Positions 15,474-32,711 of a stretch of 53,943 bases of DNA are shown one piece after another. Source of the DNA: a virus (lineage: Duplodnaviria; Caudoviricetes); the IMG/VR virus record IMGVR_UViG_3300035670_000275, positions 1-53,943 of that record; one strand, written 5' to 3'. The position numbers and the translations under genes were made by a program. Under the pieces are notes generated by a model. The model was not told where the DNA came from, ran no database searches, and saw nothing but the letters and a program-made list of their open reading frames with translations. Numbering within the stretch: the first letter of the stretch is position 1; every line of letters begins with the position of its first letter.

Positions 15474-16193
15474 TTATTTAGCTAAAAAAGATTCCATGTA
15501 TTCGTCATATGTTGGAATAAAACCACCCTCATATGATTTTAACTGTTTTTGTAGGAATTCTTTAACTTGTTTTTCTCTGATATCCACATAAAACCTTATC
15601 ATATACATTGGTTTATCGCTGTAATTAAAGGCATTATGGTAGTGGTAACTATTAAAAACGTATAGTCTACCGTTCTCGTATTGTGAATCGTATTGTGAAA
15701 TTGGTGTTGTATGGTCAGCTAGACGATACTCCATAAAATTTATTACACTATATTTTGAGCCTTCTGGTATAGATAAAGGTAACTGGAATACAGAAATCCA
15801 GTCAGGCTGACCAGCTTCGGACATATGGCCATGCCATCCAACAGAGCATCCTGGTTTAATATTCTCAAACCTAGCTAACAATTTCCCACCACCCATAGAT
15901 TCTATAATGCTTCTAAGATATGGGCACTTCTCAATAGCTGGAGATGGTTTAAAATCTCCAGTCCATGGTTCTTCTGGGTTAGAAACAGCCGACCCGTCTA
16001 TACTATAAAGAGCCACGCTATCCCAATTATTATCAACGTCATGTATCGGCATGAACTCGCCAAACCTAAATCCGCTTTTGAATGGAGATAGATCGTATGG
16101 TAAATTCAATAGTTCATTTAACACCCTATCGGCATCAAAATATACATCAGTTGGTAAATGGGCGATATCGTTTAACTTATTTAATGTATTCAC
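15474..16193 (-). CDS. Cupin-fold oxygenase, Asp/Asn beta-hydroxylase-like
   Basis: W..VALYS..G, KCPYLRSIIE, IKPGCSVGWHGH, QLPLSIP, GRLYVFNSYHYHNAFNYSDKP. This is the layout of the aspartyl/asparaginyl beta-hydroxylase family. Confidence 0.7.
   Translation of the reverse strand: MNTLNKLNDIAHLPTDVYFDADRVLNELLNLPYDLSPFKSGFRFGEFMPIHDVDNNWDSVALYSIDGSAVSNPEEPWTGDFKPSPAIEKCPYLRSIIESMGGGKLLARFENIKPGCSVGWHGHMSEAGQPDWISVFQLPLSIPEGSKYSVINFMEYRLADHTTPISQYDSQYENGRLYVFNSYHYHNAFNYSDKPMYMIRFYVDIREKQVKEFLQKQLKSYEGGFIPTYDEYMESFLAK
15475..15482 (-). promoter_or_regulatory. Late promoter-like box (GCTAAATA) upstream of the S74 fibre gene
   Basis: TAAATA core overlapping the last codons of the upstream oxygenase, about 34 nt before the fibre ATG. 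Confidence 0.5.
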
Positions 16194-16890
16194 CTGTATA
16201 TTCCTTCACTGCTCGTTCAACCATATCATACACATTATCATCTCTTAAGTCTGCAAAAAATCTTATGGTTAACCTTGGTGTTGTTACATTGTGATTGAAA
16301 ACATTATGGTAATGATATGCGTTAAAAATAACTGGTGTTCCTGGTTCATATGAAGATTCATATACACGTGGCGCACCATTTGAAAAATCGTTTGTTCTAT
16401 AATCTTTATTTGATATTACAGAGTATTTAAAACCTTCAGGGATGGTTATCGGGACTTGTACAATCATATGGGTTTCTGGGTGATATAACTCAAAAACATG
16501 ATTATGCCAGCCCATAACAGACATCGGCATAAGTTCTTCAACTCTACACAACGCTTTGCCTGCCCCAAGGGAATCAATAACCTCATAGGTATAGGGCATA
16601 AATTCTCTCAAACCAGTCTCTTGAAATTTACCCCATATTCTTTCTAGCTCTCCTGGTCCAGCACCTTCCATCCTATCACACATCATCTCGCCATTATAAC
16701 TATACAGCGATATGTTATTCCACTGACTCTTATCGTGTCCATGGTTGGATTGCATAGTAGCTTCGTATGGAAAAAGAGGGAATGGACAATTTCTAACCTC
16801 TTCTTCAATACGTTTAGGGTCATACTGAAACAAGAGAGGTAGGTGGGGGATATCCCTAACTAGTTCAGCCAATTTCAATGGATTTCGCAT
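16177..16890 (-). CDS. Cupin-fold oxygenase, Asp/Asn beta-hydroxylase-like (paralog)
   Basis: WNNISLYSYNG, MPYTYEVI, MGWHNH, QVPITIP, GTPVIFNAYHYHNVFNHNVTTPRLTIRF. Clearly homologous to 15474-16193. Confidence 0.7.
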   Translation of the reverse strand: MRNPLKLAELVRDIPHLPLLFQYDPKRIEEEVRNCPFPLFPYEATMQSNHGHDKSQWNNISLYSYNGEMMCDRMEGAGPGELERIWGKFQETGLREFMPYTYEVIDSLGAGKALCRVEELMPMSVMGWHNHVFELYHPETHMIVQVPITIPEGFKYSVISNKDYRTNDFSNGAPRVYESSYEPGTPVIFNAYHYHNVFNHNVTTPRLTIRFFADLRDDNVYDMVERAVKEYTGEYIK

Positions 16891-18799
16891 TTCTCTGCCT
16901 TATAAAATTTTCATAAAAATTAAGTATCCTATACCCTGTATCAAAGTTCTTAGATTTTGATGTTTCTATATCTGAAATATTTAGTAAGTAAGAATCTACA
17001 TAATCTTTGGAAACAACCATCCCCAAATCATCACACGTTTTTAATAAAAGATCAATATAATGGTCGTGAAATGTGAAAATGCAAGTTCTTAAAAGATATG
17101 TTACTTCTACAACCTCATCCGTGTATGGTAGTTTATAATATTTAAACTCCGATATATGTTTTTGTCTTCCGTGAACAATGTCACTTATCTCAGCTACTAA
17201 TTCGCGCATGGCATATACATATTCGTTATTTTCAACTTCCAATATATTTTTATAAAGTTGTTTAAAAAAACAGGATGGCTTTTCTATATTACCGAGTTTA
17301 ATATTCTCGTCAATAAGTTGTGGTAATTTAAAAATATATTCACCGTCTCGATCAGTTGCTTCTTTTTTAGTTTTTATCCAACTTTGTATTACCCAATGAT
17401 TCATAAACATAAACTCAACATAATCATCTTTCGTGTAACCATCAGCTTTAACCACAATTTCAACATCTGATTTATATAATGGGTCTTCTGTTATATGATA
17501 TCTTTTAGTTCTGTCATAATCGTCAAACTGTTGGCTGCCTAAAGATCTAGATTTACTAACAGATAATCTAATAGTTTCTATGTTAAATTTTTTCTTGTAT
17601 TCTGGATCGTATGCTGGAGAGTCTGGGAGTAGCATCCACATGTATCGTTCTAATGTATAACCGTGATCGTATTGAACGTCAACTTCATCATAAAATAGTT
17701 CTCTGGTGTGTCCAGGCAATCCCATAATAAATTCTAAGTCTGCTCTAACCTGATATTGTTTGTAAAGATATTTTGCATATTCAATATCAGAGTCCATTGG
17801 GACATTTTTACGTTTGATGTTAGCTAATACAGTTTCGTCTAAGGATTGCAAACTTATTTTGTATCTCTCAGTTAAGCCAGATCTCGCTAGAGGTTCAAAC
17901 GTCTTCCATTTCTTTTCTGGCGATGATTTAGTCATTCCATATATTTCAACGTATGTTGGTAAATCAAAAATATTTTTCATGTTTTCCAAATACTCTGTTA
18001 CCTCAGCATCTTCTTTATAGATGCCAAGATTAGCGTCTAATATTTGAACATAGTTGATACCAAACAATGGAATTTGATCTAAATCTTCATATACTAGCTC
18101 TTGAGGTTTACGGATAACTTTTCCACCGATGCCTCCACCCCATTCACAGAACACACATTCATATGGGCAACCTCTAGTGAGTTCTAATGGTAGGGTTAAT
18201 CCTAAGTTGTTTTTATCCGCTATTTCTTTACATTTAAAAACAATATCTTCGTTACCTTTAATAATACCACCTGGAAATTTAAACTCGCGTTTGTTTGGAG
18301 TTTTACCGCGACCTGTTCTATATACAGAAAACGATACTTCTTTCCAGTTGATCTTATCACCCTCAACCATCTGGTCAAGCATATCATTTATAAACATTTC
18401 CCCATAACTTGTTGGGTCGCAAATAGCGTCTACGAATCTATGTTTAAAAAACCAATCAATATTATTATGCGTGACGTTTAAATGTGGACCACCAAGAATA
18501 ATAATTCTATTTGGGTTACTTTTCTTTAAATCTTCCGCCAAGGACATGACAGCTATATGATTCCATAAGAAACAAGAAAACGCATAAACATCAGCGTTTT
18601 GATTTTCATAATATTCTAAAATATCATTATAACGCATGTTATCTATATCAAGTAACGGTTCCATCCAAGTTACATTATTTGGATATTTACCATTCTTTGT
18701 ATAATAATTTTTAAAACCAAGCCAATGCACTGGAATGCGCACAACTTCAGTTTTTAAATCTATATTAAGATATGATATTTTGACTTGCTTTGTTGCCAT
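16865..18799 (-). CDS. Cobalamin-binding radical SAM enzyme
   Basis: B12-binding-like segment DVYAFSCFLWN...LKKSNPNRIIILGGPH. Radical SAM motif ELTRGCPYECVFCEWG. Also DANLG, ISLQSLDETVLANIKRKN and FIMGLPGHT motifs. Confidence 0.88.
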   Translation of the reverse strand: MATKQVKISYLNIDLKTEVVRIPVHWLGFKNYYTKNGKYPNNVTWMEPLLDIDNMRYNDILEYYENQNADVYAFSCFLWNHIAVMSLAEDLKKSNPNRIIILGGPHLNVTHNNIDWFFKHRFVDAICDPTSYGEMFINDMLDQMVEGDKINWKEVSFSVYRTGRGKTPNKREFKFPGGIIKGNEDIVFKCKEIADKNNLGLTLPLELTRGCPYECVFCEWGGGIGGKVIRKPQELVYEDLDQIPLFGINYVQILDANLGIYKEDAEVTEYLENMKNIFDLPTYVEIYGMTKSSPEKKWKTFEPLARSGLTERYKISLQSLDETVLANIKRKNVPMDSDIEYAKYLYKQYQVRADLEFIMGLPGHTRELFYDEVDVQYDHGYTLERYMWMLLPDSPAYDPEYKKKFNIETIRLSVSKSRSLGSQQFDDYDRTKRYHITEDPLYKSDVEIVVKADGYTKDDYVEFMFMNHWVIQSWIKTKKEATDRDGEYIFKLPQLIDENIKLGNIEKPSCFFKQLYKNILEVENNEYVYAMRELVAEISDIVHGRQKHISEFKYYKLPYTDEVVEVTYLLRTCIFTFHDHYIDLLLKTCDDLGMVVSKDYVDSYLLNISDIETSKSKNFDTGYRILNFYENFIRQRNAKSIEIG

Positions 18800-19817
18800 T
18801 AATAGCCTCGATATAATCTACTTCACTGTTTATTTTCATAATTTGCGAAGAAAGTTTTTTCATTCTAACGCAATGTTCTTCAACCATGTTATTGGTTTTT
18901 AAGTCTTTTATAGTTTTCTTACACCCATTGCATATATTAAACATTTCACACCCAATACATTCTTCTTTCATTGAGTAGAGTTCAACTGCGTTTTGTAATG
19001 GAGTTTCGAACCCACCCTGTTTTACTTCTTTTACAAAGTTGATTGGGTATTCTTTATCATCTCCCATTGCACCGCATGAATAATAATCACCTTCTGGGTT
19101 TAATGCACGGATATGGTCATCACAATCTCTTGCTTGTGGGCAAATATTAGAAATATTTTTTAACCGAGTCATCATCTGCTTGGTATTAAACTCCCAAGGA
19201 TACAACCCTCTATTATATATCTCCACATATGTCTCGTATATTTTACTTAACAGATATGGTTTATCTAACTCACCAGAAGCCATAGCATAGTTCAATTTAC
19301 ACTGAACGTCCATTTTCTTTGCCAGTTCAACGTGTTTAATTGCATGCCTCTCGTTTTCCTCGGATATAACAGCAATAAACCCTGGTCGGTAACCAACACG
19401 TTCTAGGAATAAATCACTAACTGCCCAAAAATCTTTTTCGGTGTAAACCCTTCCGTTTGTTATTAATCTACCAAGCCCATACTGAAAACTTGTAGTCACA
19501 CCAACTCTTGGGTGTTTAAATAATGGAGTCCATAGGTCTGGCTTTTTGTAGAATGCCCAAAGATTTGTTGTAAAACCTATTGTTGTCTTTAGATTATGTT
19601 CATCTAGATAATCAATAATCTTCCAGTAATAATCTGGCTTCATCATCAATGGGTCACCACCATTGACAATAATAGTATTTGTGTTTGGGAATCTTGTGAG
19701 AAAGTCGAAGATATATTGGTGGTCTAATGTAGACGCTTTATCTTCGACTAACTTAGTTGATGAACAGAACGTGCATTTAAAATTACACAGTTCCGTCGGT
19801 TTGATTATCAGTTCCAT
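18765..19817 (-). CDS. Radical SAM/SPASM-domain enzyme
   Basis: IIKPTELCNFKCTFC (CxxxCxxC), NGGDPL, TTNL. C-terminal Cys set ICP...C...YSCG...CIGCEMFNICNGC...HC. Confidence 0.9.
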   Translation of the reverse strand: MELIIKPTELCNFKCTFCSSTKLVEDKASTLDHQYIFDFLTRFPNTNTIIVNGGDPLMMKPDYYWKIIDYLDEHNLKTTIGFTTNLWAFYKKPDLWTPLFKHPRVGVTTSFQYGLGRLITNGRVYTEKDFWAVSDLFLERVGYRPGFIAVISEENERHAIKHVELAKKMDVQCKLNYAMASGELDKPYLLSKIYETYVEIYNRGLYPWEFNTKQMMTRLKNISNICPQARDCDDHIRALNPEGDYYSCGAMGDDKEYPINFVKEVKQGGFETPLQNAVELYSMKEECIGCEMFNICNGCKKTIKDLKTNNMVEEHCVRMKKLSSQIMKINSEVDYIEAINGNKASQNIIS

Positions 19818-20751
19818 AATTTATCTTAAAAGTTTCCAACCAAGTGGAGTTGTCAATATTAATATACAAATCTCTAATTAAAAGAGGGTTAATGGAATCA
19901 TAGTTTTTTGGTGTTGGAAAACCTTGAGATATTTGTTTGGCTATTTTCTTTGAAGTATCTTTATTCAAAAGAAAATTCTTCAAAGACTCTCTACTAGTAT
20001 TATCTGGAATTGTAATGACGTTGGTTATTTCATCATTTTTACGAGATATAAATGTCAAAGAAGAAACCTGATTTATTTCTGAAAAAGGATTATCTGAATC
20101 TAATATATTATTTACATTATCTTTCAAATACTGTTCATCCTGAAACTTATCAGTTATATCACCATCAATAAACAATGGTAACAGATTCCATGCTTCCACT
20201 TCAGATAAATGATTTTTCTTAGTTGGTTTAAAAAACTTAGTAAAGCGATCTAAACAATAATCTAAGAAACTATCATCGCCTAAGAAATAATTAACAATAG
20301 CAAGTTCAATTCTAACTTCGCATGTTTTAGCAAATTCAGAAAAAGTTGTTGTTAGTTTTAATTTCTCTGGTAACTTATATTCTTTAAAAAGAAAAATGCT
20401 GTTATCTAAAACTGGAGTAATTCTAAAATTATGTTTATCTCTGTCGTAATCATATAACTTTTGCAAACCTTCTTTGCTTAGCAAAGCACCAAAGAAATAT
20501 GAATATATCTTTTGAAAACTCACATCATCCGCATAAATTATAACTTTCTGACCAGCAAGGTTCTCGTGAATATCAATAAACAGTTGTTCAATTTTTGCAG
20601 GGGTGATTGAAGAGAAGTTTTTGTACACATCAAAAGAAAATTGGAAAAAAGATTCCTCAGAGTAATCAAAATCTCCAACCCATACATGTTTAGAAACTTC
20701 ATCAATAGTTTCAGGAATAGCTAAAAAACAATTATCGAAAAGATAAATCAT
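19783..20751 (-). CDS. Hypothetical protein of the radical SAM cassette
   Basis: 322-aa ORF overlapping both neighbours. Its N-terminal half resembles 20748-21620. Confidence 0.7.
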   Translation of the reverse strand: MIYLFDNCFLAIPETIDEVSKHVWVGDFDYSEESFFQFSFDVYKNFSSITPAKIEQLFIDIHENLAGQKVIIYADDVSFQKIYSYFFGALLSKEGLQKLYDYDRDKHNFRITPVLDNSIFLFKEYKLPEKLKLTTTFSEFAKTCEVRIELAIVNYFLGDDSFLDYCLDRFTKFFKPTKKNHLSEVEAWNLLPLFIDGDITDKFQDEQYLKDNVNNILDSDNPFSEINQVSSLTFISRKNDEITNVITIPDNTSRESLKNFLLNKDTSKKIAKQISQGFPTPKNYDSINPLLIRDLYINIDNSTWLETFKINYGTDNQTDGTV

Positions 20752-21620
20752 GCTAATATCTCCAAATAATCGACAACCGTTTTATCTAAACCCATCCCCC
20801 ATTTTATGATTAATGGGTCATATTTGTCTTTATATGTTAGCGGTGTAAACAATAATAAGAAACCAGGATTGTCAATTAGTATGTTTACGTTTTTAGTTTT
20901 ATAATAATTGTATATCATTGGGTCTGCTGGGATATAAACATCTTTTCTTAAATGTAGATACAACTCAGCCATATTTTCTATTGTATTTTTATTATAGAAT
21001 TTATTATCTGTCACCCATCCAGTATAACCTTCAGCTACAATATGTTTCATTCTACCGAAATTAAAATACTCATATACATAAGAATCAACAACTGATCTAA
21101 TTTGAGAATAATCTTTTTTGACTATTCTCCATTCAATACCAGAATGTTTTTTAACCCACTGTTTGTCAATGTCAAAACCTTTTAAATCCGATGGCATGGT
21201 TTTAACTTGCTGAAAAGCATTAATAAAACCTCTGATGATTTCTTTGACACCTTCGTGTTTTAGAGTGTTGTATTTTATGATTAATTTAGCTGCAGCAAGC
21301 CTCATTAGCTGAATATAATATTTTTCATTAATATTACTGACTTGAGTTTTAATAAACCTAGAATAGATATTTACCATGTGTTCTGGGTCAGCGTATATCA
21401 CAAACTTCTCTTTATTATTTAGAGAAGGGAAGAATAAATCATCGTTGATAAACTTTTCAGAAGTCTCATATCTGCCGATTAACTCAGCATGTTCTTTATT
21501 TGAATTATAAAAACATGTACCACCATAAGAATGGTAATTTGAACCAACTACTACAAAATTTGAAGAAGGTTCAAATAAAACATCAGGTGATAGGTAGCAT
21601 GAATTAAACAGATGAAACAT
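20748..21620 (-). CDS. Hypothetical protein of the radical SAM cassette
   Basis: 290-aa ORF. MFHLFNSCYL and KFVIYAD match MIYLFDNCFL and KVIIYAD in the next gene. Confidence 0.7.
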   Translation of the reverse strand: MFHLFNSCYLSPDVLFEPSSNFVVVGSNYHSYGGTCFYNSNKEHAELIGRYETSEKFINDDLFFPSLNNKEKFVIYADPEHMVNIYSRFIKTQVSNINEKYYIQLMRLAAAKLIIKYNTLKHEGVKEIIRGFINAFQQVKTMPSDLKGFDIDKQWVKKHSGIEWRIVKKDYSQIRSVVDSYVYEYFNFGRMKHIVAEGYTGWVTDNKFYNKNTIENMAELYLHLRKDVYIPADPMIYNYYKTKNVNILIDNPGFLLLFTPLTYKDKYDPLIIKWGMGLDKTVVDYLEILA

Positions 21621-22362
21621 TAGATGCCTCTTTTTCTAAATCTGACAGTTGGTATGGAGTCAAAAACTCATCCAATATAAGATCTAAGATTGGGAAAATT
21701 AAACAATCATTATTTAAGTAGTTTAACAAAATGTTACCAGAATAAATTGGTTTATCATAGTAGTATTCATAATATAATAAATCATCAAAATTTGGAATTG
21801 ATGCTAAGTAATTCTCGTTAAACACTGGGTCTTGAAATAGATTAACCCAAGTCTTACCAACTGCAGTTGATTCTTTAACAATATTCGGAGTTATGTAATC
21901 ACCCAATTCTTGCTTATAACGGTTAATGTTCTTAATGGCATATAGAATAACCCCATCAATAATACCTTCAAGATCTTTAAAAAGCTGAACATCTTTTTGA
22001 ATCAATAGATCAATTTCATTATCTTTGATAATCTGATCGGAGAAGAATACACCTTCAGTTTCGTTCACTAACTCTAAATCATACATTTTGATTCTGAAAA
22101 GAATCTTGATAATGCTTCTTCTAAACTGAACGAGATCTAATGTTGTCTGACTCTTAATATACTCAATTAAAAGTTCACACCTTTCTTCAAATGAAACACC
22201 TTCTAGATTAATTTGAAAATCTAATTTTTTCAAATTACTCAAATACAGTAAAAAGTGCTTCCCTTTTAGTTTACTATTTTTATAATCTATTTCAATGATA
22301 TAATGATTTTCATCCGTGATGAATCTCTTTAATGTATCAACGTCAAATGGTATAGCGTGCAT
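21604..22362 (-). CDS. Hypothetical protein of the radical SAM cassette
   Basis: True start is probably ATG at 22362 (MHAIPFDVDTLKRF...), giving a TAATG overlap with the upstream stop. 252 aa. Confidence 0.7.
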   Translation of the reverse strand: MHAIPFDVDTLKRFITDENHYIIEIDYKNSKLKGKHFLLYLSNLKKLDFQINLEGVSFEERCELLIEYIKSQTTLDLVQFRRSIIKILFRIKMYDLELVNETEGVFFSDQIIKDNEIDLLIQKDVQLFKDLEGIIDGVILYAIKNINRYKQELGDYITPNIVKESTAVGKTWVNLFQDPVFNENYLASIPNFDDLLYYEYYYDKPIYSGNILLNYLNNDCLIFPILDLILDEFLTPYQLSDLEKEASNVSSV

Positions 22363-22946
22363 TAAATGCTCCCATGGCAAGAAGAATGACAAGAAGAATG
22401 GCAATAACGCTCTTGAAAATCCAAAGTAGCATTTCTATTGGTGGAGATTGCTGTGGATAAAGCTGCAACGAAAGCATCTAGGTCTGCAGCAGATATGGTA
22501 TTATTACCTGAAATTGTTGGAGCGGTCACAGCATTCATAGATACTGAATATGTCGCTTGTTTTAGATTTGTCACGTTTGTTGTATCATAGAATGGCGTTG
22601 TAGCAATAGTTCCGTTTGTATTAAAAAACTTTCTTAGCCTAGCTTTTCTGACCTTTGACAGAGTGACAGCATATGCTCTGAATTGAGTTATAATGGTAGA
22701 AGCTGTGACGTTTGTGTCAGTAATAGCAGCTGCAAAATCTGTTGTTAAACCAGTGGCAGTACCTTCTACTGGGAATGTTCCTGTGACATTCCCATAGTTG
22801 TTCCAATAATAAGTCCTACCAGTTTGTGCGTTTTGGAATGGGTGAGTTGTTGTTGACCATACAATTCCAGCATTGTATGTGTCCCTAATACTGTCCATCT
22901 GAGCAGTAATAGATGCCTTTGTAATATCACTTCCAGCTGTTGTCAT
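22362..22946 (-). CDS. Thr/Ala-rich structural-like protein with C-terminal Cys/His repeat; candidate modification substrate
   Basis: 194 aa. All three Cys lie in the terminal YCHSSCHSSCHGSI. ATGA overlap with the upstream rSAM gene. Confidence 0.7.
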   Translation of the reverse strand: MTTAGSDITKASITAQMDSIRDTYNAGIVWSTTTHPFQNAQTGRTYYWNNYGNVTGTFPVEGTATGLTTDFAAAITDTNVTASTIITQFRAYAVTLSKVRKARLRKFFNTNGTIATTPFYDTTNVTNLKQATYSVSMNAVTAPTISGNNTISAADLDAFVAALSTAISTNRNATLDFQERYCHSSCHSSCHGSI

Positions 22947-24007
22947 TTGTTAACCTTTATATACCTTAGTAATTTTTTAGGAGACGGGCAAATATCACCT
23001 TGCCATTCTAGTTGATGGCAATCGCTATTACAATTCTCAAAAACATCACATTCAAAACACCTATGATCCCTTGCTATCTCGCAACTTATATTATTTAGTC
23101 TTTTCGGTGAAGTTAATAATTTACTAATATCCATTGAGATATCGCCGAAGGAGTTATCTACTGCAGAGTTGGGGCAACCAGAGATGCTACCATCCGCATT
23201 AATTGTAAAGATCTTCTGTTCGCAATCCCTACATCTTATGCCACCATGAACCCCATACAGGCTTGCTTCTTTGATATTATTTATTAAAACGTCGTTATAT
23301 TCTGGTTTAATAGTCTCATACAACTTATATAAGTTGAAGAGCCATTCAGAAACTTCAGCGTTTGTTGGAAATATCTCTGTATTTTTTATAGCATTCCCAC
23401 CAGCAGTTAGACGTTCAAATTGTACATGATTAACCCCTAGAGTATTCAACCACTCCACTAGTTCTAGTTGGTTCATTTCTATGATATTTCTATTTAAAGA
23501 TATATTCAATGTTATATTACAACCTTCTCCAACTAACGTGGCCAGATTTTTCCTCCACAACGATTCTTGTTTTTGATTTTCAAATCTAATATCTTTGTCC
23601 CAACTTGTACAGAAACCATTCTTTAGGACTGTTTTGAAGAAACTAATGTGTTCATCAGTTAGAGTATAAACGAGGTTAGTTGAACACGACCACGATATAT
23701 TTTTCCAAAGCGGGGATACTCTTTCCCAAACATATATCATATCTTCAATTGGAGCAAGGAATGGTTCTCCACCGTGAAATATTATTGAACCACCCTGAAA
23801 AGATGGAAAATCCTCATAAAGTCTGTGAAACCACTCCACAGTTTTATGAGGATCGAAATATATCTTCTTACCGTTAATTCCGTTTGTAAAGCAGTGCTTA
23901 CAATTTAACTGACATGTTTCAGTTGTTTTAAGATAAACTACTAATTCTTTTGGTGCAAAACTGGAAGATAATTTATTTTTGTAAAAAAATACTGGTGATT
24001 CTTTCAT
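22943..24007 (-). CDS. Radical SAM/SPASM-domain enzyme
   Basis: YLKTTETCQLNCKHC, FHGGEPFL, STNL. SPASM-like CRDC...TINADGSISGCPN...CFECDVFENCNSDC...ICP. Confidence 0.92.
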   Translation of the reverse strand: MKESPVFFYKNKLSSSFAPKELVVYLKTTETCQLNCKHCFTNGINGKKIYFDPHKTVEWFHRLYEDFPSFQGGSIIFHGGEPFLAPIEDMIYVWERVSPLWKNISWSCSTNLVYTLTDEHISFFKTVLKNGFCTSWDKDIRFENQKQESLWRKNLATLVGEGCNITLNISLNRNIIEMNQLELVEWLNTLGVNHVQFERLTAGGNAIKNTEIFPTNAEVSEWLFNLYKLYETIKPEYNDVLINNIKEASLYGVHGGIRCRDCEQKIFTINADGSISGCPNSAVDNSFGDISMDISKLLTSPKRLNNISCEIARDHRCFECDVFENCNSDCHQLEWQGDICPSPKKLLRYIKVNK

Positions 24008-24028
24008 AATATAGTTTTTTCATAACAA

Positions 24029-25246
24029 TTAAAGAATAACGCACTCTACAAGTTTTAAACCTTCTTTCAAGTTTGTCTCAAGAGCAATACCAAAAGAGTT
24101 AGTTGTATCTCCAGCGATACCATGACCGCCATCATCGCAAATTAATGGTTGACCCTTTCTAATTGGTCCAACAACTTTAACTGGCACACGACCACGCAAT
24201 GCGATAGCTTGACCATCAGCTTCATCGTTCATAATGAATGCTGGGTTTGTAGAAACAACACCTAGGACACGTTGGTTCGTTGTGTGGCTGAGAGTAGCTT
24301 CTGCTGCAGTATCATCAGTTGATACCACAACTACTGTTCCAGGAGAATACTCATTATCTGTTGTATATTTTTCTGCCAAGTCAGCGTATCTAGCAGAAGT
24401 TGAAGTACCATATATTACAGCAAATCTATTAGTTGATTGACCAATATCGCCAGTACCATTAGTTCCAGATTTTTGAATAGATGAAACAGTTGGGTTTGTA
24501 ACAAGAGCAATTGTTGGGTTTCCAGCAGTACCATCAGCGTTTGTTATTGTGATGGAGTTGCCAGCTGCAACCGAGCGAACTGCTACTGTGTTATCAGTTT
24601 TTCTAACAACAATACCGTTGCCAGAAGAACCAGAAACGTTGGCTAGAATAGCGGAATATGCTTGGATGTCTGTACCAATTCTTAGACCTAATTTATCCCT
24701 AGCATCAAACGCTGTTGAAGCACCAGTACCACCATCAGCAATTGCTAAATCAGTAATACCCGTGATTGAACCGCCAGTAATATCAACTAAATCTGATTGC
24801 TGTGTTGAAATAGTACCAAGACCAAGGTTTGTTCTTGCGTTAGACGCTGTTACCGCACCAGTGCCACCGTGTTCAATTTGAACAACACCGTTAACGTTAG
24901 AAGCGTTACCAGTAACAGTTCCTGTTAAGTTACCAACAACGTTACCTAGAACATCACCAATGTGTTGTCCGTAAAATCTAACTGAATATAAATCGCCGAG
25001 ACCATCTCTAACAGCTACTGTGTCTGGCAAAGAATTGATACTTGGGTAATTGCCATGAACTTTATCTGCATCTAATGTAGAACCGCTGCCTCCGTGACCA
25101 TCTAATAGTTGAAGAATATTGGTGAAGTTGAATGCGACTGAATCTAGTTTTGTTCCAACTTCTCTATTGATATTATCGAAGTTTTGATCAACTTCTTCAA
25201 TTGTTAGTGGGCGTTCTTTATCAAGTCTTAAGTTAATAGCTGCCAT
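24029..25246 (-). CDS. Tail fibre/spike protein with C-terminal autoproteolytic chaperone (peptidase G2/IMC-like)
   Basis: LDADKVHG and GGTGA..A..AR.NLGL fibre repeats. [11 protein letters not shown]...PGTVVV...[14 protein letters not shown]...[18 protein letters not shown]. Confidence 0.82.
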
Positions 25247-25496
25247 TGCTTGCCTTTTCCAATATTTGTTTTAGCATTGATTTAATACTATGTACATCAT
25301 CTTTGATACTATTTATTTCATTTTGTATAGAGGTAATAGCATCTGAATTACTTCTATTAATTTCAGCACCACGTCTAATCATCTGTTTACTTTTTAGATA
25401 GGATTTATACGTGGTGCTGTCAGTGTTAACGACACCACCGTTGGCGGTGTCCTTCATAAGGTTTGAATATCCTTCAACTTTTGTCAAATTCATCAT
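25233..25496 (-). CDS. Small coiled-coil protein following the large structural protein
   Basis: [19 protein letters not shown] followed by the heptad [20 protein letters not shown]. Overlaps both neighbours. Confidence 0.65.
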
Positions 25497-28400
25497 GATA
25501 GGGCTAATAGTCTCAGGTTTTTAATTTTTGGTACAAACGCTGGGTTAGAAGATTTCAAAACAATTTTAATAGAGATATTGTTAAAAGGATCTAAACCAGT
25601 TAAATCAGTTGATCTTTCAACGAAAGTTCCCTCTGGGTCTTTGTTGATAGAAACGTAACCAGTATCAATATATGGTAATTTTCTTAAATCAACTGCGCCA
25701 GACCAAGTTCTGTAATATACCTTAACTGAAGTGTTATTTGGGATATTAGCATCGAACATAACCTTTAATGTATCAGCTGCCTCAGTAAGAGTTAAAGTTC
25801 TTGTAATATAGTTAGCTTCATTGCTGCAACCAAATGGAGCAACGTCATCAACATACTTATCTAACACGCTGATGCTAAAGTCAAGATCAGTAGTAGCATC
25901 AACGGTGGCAGAACCAGCGAATGAACGATCTAGATATACACGAGTTAGATCTAATTCTTCATTACCAGCATATGTTGTTTTGTCTTCTTCGCTAACAACT
26001 TTCTGCACAACATATGTACCATTAACGTTAGCGTTGCAGTTTTCAATTATAATGGTTTTACCAATACCAACAGATGCCAAGATGTTATCAATGGTATCAA
26101 TATTAGAACGAATAACGCCAACCCCACCAATATTCTCAAACACTAAGTTTGGTGCAGAGCGAATATAGAATGGTGTAGAAGAAGAAATTGCAGTAGTTGC
26201 TGTTCCTGTTAATGTAATGCTAGTGTTACTATTAACAGTGCTAACAGTACCGATTAATGCATTATCGCTAGTTCTATAAAGTTTATTACTTACACTTCCC
26301 GTAACTTGAGTTGTGAAAGTTGTCCCAGAACCAGTTACAGAAGTACCACTAGCAGAAGTAATAGTACCTGTACCAGTTAGAACCAAATCAGCATTAATAA
26401 TATCACCAGCTGAAATAATAGCACGTTTATCAATTTCTGTAACGTTGATGTTTGCTGCAGTTACATTATTGATTTTGTTAGCGATTGCAAACGCAGAGGT
26501 TTGTACGATATCAACAACTGGAGAAATATTATGATTAGTTGAATACAACACTGATTTCACAAGCAGAGATGATTGTTTAACTAATGGAGATTCTGTAATA
26601 ATATCTTGGTTTTCAAAAGAACAAATATGACCACGTGTTGTCAGGTTATAGTTGTTATTTGGTACTAGAGGAGTCCAAGCAGTAAATGAACCATCTTCTA
26701 GTTGCATTTTGAAATAATACTCAATCTTTGTATCTTGTAAGATTACATCTGAATTCTTCAAGAAAAGTGTATCAACTGGGAGGCAACGGTTACAAGTAAC
26801 AGTGTTTCCGCCATATTCACCCTTTGTGAAGTCAGCAGTTGTTCCAGATAATAGATTATTTCCGTATACATCAGTTGTCACCAAGTTAATAACAAAAGAA
26901 TCTGTCTCTAAACCTTCAGAAAGAACAGTGTGTTCTCTATTCAGTAATGTATGTGGGATACCTTTTGTTGTGTCGGAAGAACCATAATAGCCTTCTGGTA
27001 CATCACTTATATAAGCTATTTCACCTGCAATCATTCCGTGATTTCTAGCCCAAACACGAATCTTTGTTGTGTTTGGTGTGATCTCAAACGGATTAACATC
27101 CAACAAATATCTTTCTGGTGGTATTGTTCTAAAGATAACCTCAGACGCTGTTCCAATGTCAAACTTAGACTTATTCAAGTAGAACTTAACATCCAACAGT
27201 GGGTGGATTTCCCATTCTCTTGAGTTCTGAGAAGCATACAACGAGCCAGTCAATGGTTGACCTGCAATTGTATTGTTTGTCAAAATATCATCTTGACCCA
27301 TTTCAGAAACATAAATTCTAGCTCCTGGTTCATCAGTCATGATAACAAGGGCATAGGTTTCTGAGTCTTGTAAGTATATTGGGGCTTTAAATTTAAATGT
27401 AGTTGCAATAGAACTATCATCAGAAACATTAATTTCTTGTATAGTCTTAGTCACAGTTGAGAATGGGACAACCTTAGATGAAGGAACACCATTATCAGTA
27501 TTTCTAATCTCAACAGTAATTGGTCTGTTTCCAGAAACCTCAAAGTACAAATCAACAGAAGAAACAAACACACCGCCAACAGAGTTAATAGTGAATGTTT
27601 GTGCTAGGGGGTCAACTGTATGTTGGTAAATAACTTTAGAGTTTGTTGTGGTTCTTCTAATAGTTGGTTTACTTGTTGAACCATTTTGGTCAAATACTTC
27701 TTCTGATGTGAATCCAGCAACTCGGCTAGAAACAATAGTTCTTTCTTTAGTTAAAGAAATACCTTGAGCGAAGTAAGTTGCTCTACCAGTAGAGTCATAT
27801 TGGTTATCGCTATTAGAAACGTTATCTGTTAACTCAAAAGATTTTTCACCGCAACGGAAACTTAAAGTTTCATTTTCTGGCAATACAAACACACCACAAG
27901 CGTTACCTTCTCTATCAGTTATTAACTTATCTCCGTAAGAGCTTAGAGTAGGTGCAGTTGAAGTGCTTGTTGAACCATTGATTTCTGTTAATGTTACAGC
28001 GTTGAAGTTAGAAGTATTTTTAAGATTTACTGAACCACCTAATGTTTCACCAACAGCAAAACCATGTTTAACGTTGATTACAAATAGCTCTTGATTCTTA
28101 ATTCCATACGCATCATAATCGTCAGTTGGGTGCGCATAACCACCCAAAGCAACAACACATGATGCTCTGTAACGGTATAATTTACCTTTATTTCCATTGC
28201 TGTATGAAGCAGTGGAGTAAGTATCAAACGGTGAAATTAGAGAACCATCGAGAGTTTCTAAGATAAGCGCATTTCCGCTAATAGAACGAACTCTAAATGT
28301 TTTCAAATTCAACTGTTTTGCAGTTGCAGCGTTTGTTGTAATATCAACGCTTGATGGAATACTCTGGTTTTCTTTTAGATCAAGAAGGTTAACCTGAGCT

Positions 28401-32703: not shown

Positions 32704-32711
32704 TATTTATA
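32704..32711 (-). promoter_or_regulatory. T4 late promoter (TATAAATA)
   Basis: Perfect consensus in the spacer, about 33 nt upstream of the ATG at 32671. Confidence 0.8.

Follow-up and report, generated by a model that had tools for sequence, protein, structure and literature searches.

The 53,943-nucleotide DNA of virus record IMGVR_UViG_3300035670_000275 (Duplodnaviria; Caudoviricetes), analyzed here at full length and called the window, forms one long minus-strand block with genes for a T4-type baseplate, a giant structural protein and tail fibers. Between its tail-fiber genes lies the gene of a 194-residue protein, P0001, which ends in three tandem C-H-x-S units and is hereafter named the CH-tail protein. 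Directly upstream is the gene of a radical S-adenosylmethionine (rSAM) enzyme with SPASM-type Cys motifs, rSAM_A; downstream, beyond three genes of unassigned role, lies that of a second such enzyme, rSAM_B (Table 1).

The Cys/His tail and its variants

At its C terminus the open reading frame 22362-22946 (-) reads ...YCHSSCHSSCHGSI-stop, and the 194-residue translation of 22362..22946 (-) closes with ...FQERYCHSSCHSSCHGSI*. All three Cys residues of the protein are in the tail and none is in residues 1 to 181; Thr, Ala, Ser and Asn predominate in its composition (36, 24, 17 and 15 of 194 residues). Six-frame translation of the whole window yielded CH..CH..CH only once. On the minus strand, 'cattcttcttg' occurs at 22400-22390 and at 22388-22378, which is plus-strand caagaagaatg with a period of 12. 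The G+C content of the gene is 39.5%, and that of the flanking fiber genes is 39.4-40.3%; it is 34.3% for rSAM_A, 35.1% for rSAM_B, 32.2% for a B12-binding rSAM gene and 28.6-29.8% for the three unknown genes. An earlier prediction, made from the letters of the window alone, had described a Cys-free, Thr/Ala/Asn-rich body followed by a Cys/His tail, a 12-nucleotide-period tandem repeat at 22378-22388 and 22390-22400, and a gene less AT-rich than the enzyme genes (28.6-35.1% G+C) and similar to the structural ones. The translation, the coordinates and the base composition all agree with it.

A first homology search with the CH-tail protein returned 118 proteins, all but one of which carry three C-H-x-x units at the C terminus (117/118; P0117 has two). 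Because the motif itself could have seeded both this search and the first locus scan, the profile was rebuilt from the alignment with the tail cut off and run against 1.84 billion representatives. Among the best 150 of its 316 matches, 134 contain CH..CH..CH. The other 16 comprise five fragments or truncated proteins, nine informative variants and two proteins without any units. One of the nine variants has Tyr in place of all three His and in another the middle unit contains Phe; five are poorer in Cys yet keep runs of H-x-N, H-x-Q or H-x-S; one has only two units; and in one, two CH units precede a long Gly-rich C-terminal extension. Their tails include CYSD-CYVN-P-CYRS, CHYS-CFTS-S-CHFS and Cys-less HxN/HxQ runs, and in some natural variants two of the three Cys are gone and the aromatic units are retained.

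In the canonical tails (n = 244), Cys and His are present in 244/244, the third position is free, and the fourth is Ser or Asn in 243, 239 and 237 sequences for the successive units. The description of the core as (CHxS)3 therefore stood as regards the three units at the C terminus, but the fourth position is not strictly Ser: it can be S or N and, in rare cases, Q, D or A. The 65 distinct motif DNAs draw on a mixture of synonymous codons (TGT/TGC, CAT/CAC and, for Ser, both codon families), and a 12-nucleotide repeat of at least 11 nucleotides is found in only a few copies, which argues that selection acts on the peptide and that the DNA repeat of the window is incidental. These comparisons indicate that the tail is far beyond chance and is a selected peptide feature, and that the selected element is a modular four-residue unit, C-aromatic-x-(S/N), not the DNA repeat.

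The number of units varies. Other relatives have between 4 and about 13 units, which are joined through VV or VPV linkers; the homologue at L037:9995-10675 (+) has a tail of about 13 C-H-x-S/N units with VPV/VV linkers before an RGRR end. Tandem pairs of CH-tail genes occur at L135:1896-3610, L144/L149:2984-4497 and L166:585-1354, all in loci found through rSAM_B, and the two tandem genes of L166 encode only 126 and 128 residues. By analogy, variable unit number and tandem genes look like the behavior of a repeated core of a peptide synthesized ribosomally and modified posttranslationally (RiPP). Homologues reach 453 residues. Longer fused forms were absent from the search with the window's own protein, which is weak evidence, and the profile search did give some (P0154 and others).

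RxRR follows the last unit in most relatives, and the window's clade has I or L there. Two distant homologues, P0262 and P0265, have a Pro-rich C-terminal stretch and keep an RGRR-COOH end without the Cys/His units, which makes the basic end a conserved feature in its own right. No locus was found in viral contigs for the gene context of P0262, P0250 and P0253, and none in metagenome or viral contigs with the P0262 and P0265 alignment.

Gene linkage, enzymes and setting

Linkage was determined from both sides. The tail-side set consists of 80 IMG/VR loci found through the tail, in which rSAM_B was counted where at least 8 kb lay downstream (53 loci). The enzyme-side set was obtained with rSAM_B alone as the query, which is encoded in 364 IMG/VR loci; the best 80 of these were taken, 63 of them with at least 8 kb upstream. 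In the tail-side set, rSAM_A is upstream of the CH-tail gene in 78/80 loci, the other two being at contig ends, and the two genes overlap or are less than 100 nucleotides apart in 73 of the 78. rSAM_B is downstream in 52/53 loci; in the one miss, L064, it lies just past the range on its contig (L096). The gene of the conserved partner F2 starts within 150 nucleotides of the CH-tail stop in 66/69 loci. From the enzyme side, rSAM_A is present in 62/63 loci and a CH-unit gene directly follows it in 61/63, of which 52 were recognized by the tail-less hidden Markov model and nine by the motif, with a divergent N-domain; the other two loci were not assessable. The original prediction had named loss of the Cys/His tail in homologues that keep the enzymes as counterevidence, and no such case was seen among these 63 loci found through rSAM_B (61 with the tail gene, two not assessable). 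Gene neighborhoods thus indicate, in both search directions, that the CH-tail gene is tightly coupled to rSAM/SPASM genes.

Both enzymes have the Cys motifs of this class. In rSAM_A, CX3CX2C is found at residue 32 and CX2CX5CX3C, matched exactly, at residue 317, and 11 of its Cys are invariant in 39 sequences (C32/36/39, C259/262/278 and C317/320/326/330/340). rSAM_B, the most conserved gene of the cassette (50-81% identity across loci), has CX3CX2C at residue 11 and a C-terminal run of C287, C290, C296 and C299. Both Cys motifs are found in 76/76 full-length copies of rSAM_A and 55/57 copies of rSAM_B. The SPASM domain model TIGR04085 gives 24.3 and 25.4 bits (cut-off 27). The nearest named relatives of rSAM_A are DarE, PapB, DynA and anSME in NCBIfam, with scores far below the cut-offs, and anSME, CteB and ChlB in the PDB, where ChlB is among seven sequence matches of the rSAM_A profile. 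The matches to the DarE, PapB and anSME models are weak and full-length; for PapB, residues 26-333 align to positions 7-319 of 330 (E 2.5e-10, 40.1 bits, cut-off 340). By their sequences, rSAM_A and rSAM_B look intact and of the peptide- or protein-modifying SPASM type. Because CX3CX2C starts at residue 32 or 11, neither enzyme has room for an N-terminal RiPP recognition element, and the lack of a leader-recognition domain would fit a folded-protein substrate. The early position of the motif resembles that of anSME, which acts on proteins. A complex predicted for rSAM_A, the CH-tail protein, SAM and three 4Fe-4S clusters scored 0.02, where the mark to reach is 0.32, and is used neither for nor against binding.

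The local order is a giant 2392-residue protein, an 87-residue virion protein, a 405-residue fiber, rSAM_A, the CH-tail protein, three unknowns, rSAM_B, a B12-binding rSAM, two paralogues resembling 2-oxoglutarate (2OG) oxygenases or hydroxylases, and a 324-residue fiber with Peptidase_S74. The part from the giant protein through the 87-residue protein, the fiber and rSAM_A to the CH-tail gene is conserved across loci. Cassette genes overlap or abut: the rSAM_A stop and CH-tail start share ATGA, and the CH-tail stop and F2 start share TAATG, with the F2 ATG at 22362-22360.

Table 1. Features of the window around the CH-tail gene
Feature	Position	Strand	Remarks
CH-tail protein gene, P0001, 194 residues	22362..22946	-	About 180-residue folded N-domain and C-terminal core
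Core, three C-H-x-S units (CHSS CHSS CHGS), residues 182-193; then Ile194 and stop	22368..22403	-	
rSAM_A, rSAM/SPASM enzyme, 354 residues	22943..24007	-	CX3CX2C and CX2CX5CX3C
F2, conserved partner of unassigned role, 252 residues	21604..22362	-	phrog_20767
F3-family protein, 290 residues	20748..21620	-	Family in 66/80 loci
Clade-specific protein, family F13, 322 residues	19783..20751	-	Family in 10 loci
rSAM_B, second rSAM/SPASM-type enzyme, 350 residues	18765..19817	-	CX3CX2C and C-terminal Cys run
B12-binding rSAM, optional cassette member, 644 residues	16865..18799	-	Pfam B12-binding and Radical_SAM
Two 2OG-Fe(II)/Asp-Asn-hydroxylase-like paralogues	16177-16890 and 15474-16193	-	Weak Pfam matches, below cut-off
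Tail-fiber protein, directly upstream of cassette, 405 residues	24029..25246	-	PHROG tail-fiber families
Tail-fiber protein with Peptidase_S74, directly downstream of cassette, 324 residues	14467..15441	-	Domain match

Among the accompanying proteins, F2 is modeled by AlphaFold2 as mostly helical, with a predicted local distance difference test (pLDDT) value of 85.7, and matched nothing in the PDB (Foldseek) or the ESM Atlas. The F3 protein at 20748..21620 has no Pfam or NCBIfam match. By eye, the 290- and 322-residue unknowns have similar first residues (MFHLFNSCYL... and MIYLFDNCFL...). The two may be paralogues; they were kept apart in blastp clustering. The best family of the B12-binding rSAM is that of the KedN5-type C-methyltransferases (134 bits, cut-off 700), and the protein is likely of C-methyltransferase type; as it is present in 25/80 loci only, methylation may be an optional extra step. 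The hydroxylase-like paralogues (239 and 237 residues, one blastp family, F15) weakly match Asp/Asn beta-hydroxylases and 2OG-Fe(II) oxygenases. Cassettes further removed have instead a cupin/JmjC gene just upstream of rSAM_A and several 2OG-Fe(II) oxygenase genes. The word TATAAATA, the T4 late-promoter consensus, is found at 32704-32711 (-), 33 nucleotides upstream of where the giant gene, the first of the packed block with the cassette, starts. With two matches in the window and 6.4 expected by chance, this site is only a hint of a late promoter ahead of the operon.

Tblastn of the CH-tail protein and megablast of positions 16000-26000 against INPHARED gave no matches. rSAM_A and rSAM_B match the same 15 INPHARED records, so that cultured carriers were reached through the enzymes only. 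The cassette occurs in T4-like phages and in cultured jumbo phages whose hosts are Ralstonia, Burkholderia, Agrobacterium, Sinorhizobium and Pseudomonas. In each of the four lineages checked (RSL2, Atu_ph07, pPa_SNUABM_DT01 and Phosso), rSAM_A is followed by a gene whose product has three C-H-x-S units and RxRR at its end. The Pseudomonas jumbo phage pPa_SNUABM_DT01 (L083) has at least six consecutive genes annotated as radical SAM around the cassette, and RSL2 has four radical SAM genes with a dihydrofolate reductase gene among them. Among 185,579 species genomes, eight loci passed tblastn confirmation. Seven of them (L086-L092), all on contigs of metagenome-assembled genomes, mostly binned as Bdellovibrionota, have a gene with C-terminal CH units; cassette genes flank six of them, and at L089 the contig breaks off. 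The contigs probably come from phages and were binned together with bacterial ones, or else belong to phages that infect those hosts. The remaining locus, L093, lacks any cassette gene and seems to be a spurious match.

Our literature searches found neither a description of the CH-tail protein nor an account of a phage structural protein modified by rSAM enzymes. The available text of a pelagimyophage study notes rSAM cassettes in the host-recognition cluster and leaves them uninterpreted (PMC7029224). In the parts available of the phage papers that mention them, these genes are merely listed (PMC8066314, PMC5468394, PMC11898562, PMC7029224, PMC2853527, PMC5332604, PMC11118758).

Nature of the CH-tail protein and of its tail

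The N-domain of about 180 residues folds confidently in AlphaFold2 (pLDDT 84), and the tail is modeled as helical at low confidence. The carrier is thus a folded domain, as had been predicted, and not a short leader; its presence in the virion is a separate claim. Foldseek found no match for the N-domain in the PDB at E ≤ 0.001, only uncharacterized homologues were found in BFVD, the best Z of 4.2 in a wide VIA-align search is at noise level, and the ESM Atlas gave no usable match. Homology to the adjacent fiber was considered and rejected (BLASTP E 0.23), their shared cluster being an artifact of single linkage.

Several things point to a fiber-like structural protein. The gene is located between tail-fiber genes and is fiber-like in G+C content and composition. 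At L067:9953-10897 (+), a homologue with four CH units continues through a Gly/Asp-rich linker into a Peptidase_S74 domain (E 1.5e-11, 44.8 bits, cut-off 22). This "chaperone of endosialidase" is a self-cleaving trimerization module of phage fibers and spikes, and after the expected self-cleavage the CH units of L067 would be C-terminal again. A Pfam scan found no Peptidase_S74 domain in the window's own CH-tail protein. The homologue P0154 has a Gly_rich_2 domain at its N terminus. In Atu_ph07, the virion proteins defined by mass spectrometry are described as clustering in coding sequences 170-215 and in other clusters (PMC6102473); gp170, a CH-tail homologue by its RefSeq tag, is the first coding sequence of the 170-215 cluster.

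We favor, with moderate confidence, the reading that the rSAM/SPASM enzymes act on the CH-tail protein as a protein-sized substrate and crosslink its C-H-x-S/N units into cyclophanes and/or thioethers. Within it, we infer the modification, its chemistry, the roles of the enzymes, the location in the virion and the function. The CH-tail protein would be a late, fiber-like structural or virion-associated protein, co-translated with the enzymes from a single, densely packed late operon, and its tail units would be the dedicated substrate of rSAM_A and rSAM_B. The enzymes would remove a hydrogen atom from the side chain of Ser/Asn and form one crosslink within each unit. The likeliest crosslink would be a three-residue His-to-C-beta cyclophane, as in triceptides, which is favored because the variants keep the aromatic and fourth-position residues more faithfully than Cys. 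A Cys-S-to-C thioether, as in ranthipeptides, could be an alternative or an addition; with two universal SPASM enzymes, both may form. F2 and the F3 protein may aid substrate recognition, and in some phages the accompanying 2OG oxygenases, cupins and B12-binding rSAM might oxidize or methylate the units further. This would leave a fiber-type protein of the host-recognition module with a C-terminal tip that is crosslinked and rigid and may bind metal and resist proteases. The earlier proposal of a RiPP-like core on a virion carrier, targeted by rSAM enzymes, holds as far as the conserved tail, the rSAM/SPASM linkage and the folded carrier are concerned; modification and presence in the virion lie outside that part. 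Its suggestion of heme binding through an atypical Cx3CH motif found no support, as nothing in the cassette suggests cytochrome c maturation by Pfam or NCBIfam.

Several observations weigh against this reading. No fiber fold was recognizable in the N-domain by Foldseek against the PDB or by VIA-align. The CH-tail homologue of RSL2, ORF068, is annotated as hypothetical only, with ORF065, a "virion structural protein", as a neighbor, and in the available text of papers on RSL2 relatives the homologue is not named among the structural proteins (PMC8066314, PMC11898562). The distant homologues P0262 and P0265 are devoid of Cys, His and aromatic units. The chemistry cannot be read from homology because all the scores to named maturase profiles are far below the cut-offs. 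The cassette has up to five rSAM genes and several oxygenases, beyond the obvious need of a 12-residue core, and other substrates such as the flanking fibers are possible. Lastly, 244/261 family proteins keep Cys and His without change, and both residues are classic metal ligands.

This invariance is what the main rival would account for, namely that the Cys3His3 tail is a metal or Fe-S site, perhaps on the trimer axis of a fiber-like tip, which is left unmodified while the rSAM enzymes act elsewhere. At the fiber tips of T4 gp37 and gp12, His residues on the threefold axis coordinate Fe or Zn, the L067 homologue bears a trimer-forming chaperone domain, and in the helix predicted at low confidence Cys i, i+4 and i+8 would be on one face. 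However, the variants swap all three His for Tyr or one for Phe, alter the spacing of the units or lose two of the three Cys, and all the while keep aromatic-x-(S/N/Q/D). A ligand model also gives no reason why the fourth position should be held to S/N through both Ser codon families, the variable linkers (VV, VPV, P and S) speak against a fixed periodic geometry, and the near-obligate linkage to rSAM_A would be left unexplained. We therefore consider an unmodified metal site unlikely, although metal binding could coexist with a crosslinked product.

The excess of enzymes over a 12-residue core, the constant adjacency to rSAM_A and the position of the cassette between fiber genes would also suit an accessory role, in which the CH-tail protein serves the enzymes as a docking or chaperone subunit or as an electron or Fe-S donor and the true substrates are the neighboring fibers. 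But units that vary from 2 to about 13 and a gene duplicated in some loci are typical of substrates rather than of subunits, the G+C content and Thr/Ala/Asn-rich composition are those of fibers and unlike those of the enzymes, one homologue is fused to a self-cleaving fiber chaperone domain, and neither Pfam nor NCBIfam recognized an Fe-S-type Cys pattern. Such a role appears quite improbable to us, and less likely than a metal site.

Slighter still, and likewise below the metal site, is the chance that the protein is a sacrificial scaffold whose C-terminal residues become a released small molecule or short peptide, as pyrroloquinoline quinone and mycofactocin are made from residues of a scaffold and then released. 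No protease or peptidase was recognized in the cassette by Pfam, PHROG or NCBIfam, and repeated units and long arrays are unsuited to a single cofactor. The core does stand at the extreme C terminus, and oxidative enzymes abound in the cassette (SPASM rSAMs, 2OG oxygenases, cupins and B12-binding rSAM), but in L067 a fiber chaperone domain follows the repeats, and the whole cassette is within a late structural, host-recognition module.

The cassette is common, and it occurs both in T4-like phages and in cultured jumbo phages of five host genera. If the tail is modified as in the crosslinking reading, this would explain the several rSAM genes in so many large phages and add a new chemical layer of host recognition or particle stability. 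For natural-product chemists, C-aromatic-x-S/N would be a novel substrate unit borne by a folded carrier. Because four cultured lineages carry the cassette, a direct test is possible.

Comparison with known systems

Crosslinking by rSAM/SPASM enzymes is known for small secreted peptides and a few enzyme subunits, and QhpD acts on a protein subunit, QhpC. With the thioether maturases (PapB, CteB and TIGR04115), the phage system shares short, fixed Cys spacing beside a SPASM enzyme, and rSAM_A spans nearly the whole PapB model. It differs in that some phage variants without two of the three Cys keep the aromatic units. The phage enzymes are outside these families, with 40.1 bits for PapB (cut-off 340) and 17.8 bits for TIGR04115 (cut-off 350). 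The metal sites of T4 fiber tips (gp37 HxH iron and gp12 zinc) resemble the tail in their short His repeats near the distal C terminus, within a T4-like fiber module. Unlike the phage tail, which is tied to rSAM/SPASM genes and tolerates His-to-Tyr/Phe changes, those sites need no dedicated enzymes.

Triceptides, the products of rSAM/SPASM enzymes that form three-residue cyclophanes, such as HaaB, YhhB, HtkB, ChlB and XyeB, resemble the phage system in that repeated aromatic-X-X units (H/Y/F - x - S/N/Q/D here) have an rSAM/SPASM gene as neighbor. Omega1-X2-X3 cyclophanes with a His are established products of rSAM enzymes, and HtkB is described as accepting His-to-Phe and His-to-Trp precursors (PMC11499958). 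His units are thus known (HAA, HNR and HTK), and the aromatics swap naturally here as they do in HtkA H1F/H1W (PMC11499958). In contrast to the short leader of triceptides, the phage protein has a folded carrier of about 180 residues, with some fiber-type fusions and homologues of up to 453 residues; moreover, each phage unit is preceded by a conserved Cys and the system is phage-borne. Against the cyclophane synthase families, the phage rSAM enzymes gave 26.2 bits for YhhB (cut-off 445), 19.2 for XyeB (450) and 19.8 for AmcB (425), mainly over the rSAM core.

The closest analogue is the bacterial HXS antiphage system. Its effector HxsA, with five HxS repeats, is described as matured by the rSAM enzymes HxsB and HxsC and by HxsD (PMC13128918). 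A change of +8 Da on an SHRSS unit, whose chemistry is unsolved, is required to block phage DNA entry, and that unit can spare neither its flanking Ser nor its His nor its terminal Ser, according to the same source (PMC13128918). The likeness extends to a protein-sized substrate (at least 214 residues in HxsA and about 190 here), to tandem His-x-Ser units (HSS, HSS and HGS in the 194-residue protein) beside two rSAM genes, and to basic residues around the repeats (RxRR-COOH in most phage relatives); the essential Ser and His of SHRSS compare with the C-H-x-S of the phage protein. However, the phage genes belong to a tail-fiber/host-recognition module, whereas HXS is a bacterial defense, and the phage protein has no peptidoglycan-binding domain, a Cys precedes each His and both phage enzymes have SPASM-type Cys patterns.

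By profile, the phage cassette is outside HXS in every comparison. An NCBIfam scan of P0001 at E ≤ 0.1 gave no HxsA family match, only a spurious one to BstA. The HxsC model (TIGR03977) scores 29.6 bits against rSAM_B (cut-off 267.9), over residues 8-90 only, and rSAM_B is outside that family. Neither an HxsB nor an HxsC model is among the best 25 of the 38 families matched by rSAM_A, and the unassigned cassette proteins have no HxsD match at E ≤ 0.1.

A further, tentative possibility, on which we place limited weight, is that phage rSAM/SPASM enzymes give a fiber-tip protein of large myoviruses (T4-like aquatic and jumbo phages) a string of macrocycles, which at the interface of cell envelope and DNA entry might be the phage-side counterpart of HxsA or a countermeasure to it. 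Crosslinking of this kind on a protein of the virus particle would be the first RiPP-type case. With HxsA, one bacterial anti-phage effector joined the set of rSAM-crosslinked products in 2026, as reported in the available text (PMC13128918), and by analogy HxsA is a precedent for an rSAM-matured, protein-sized substrate with HxS repeats.

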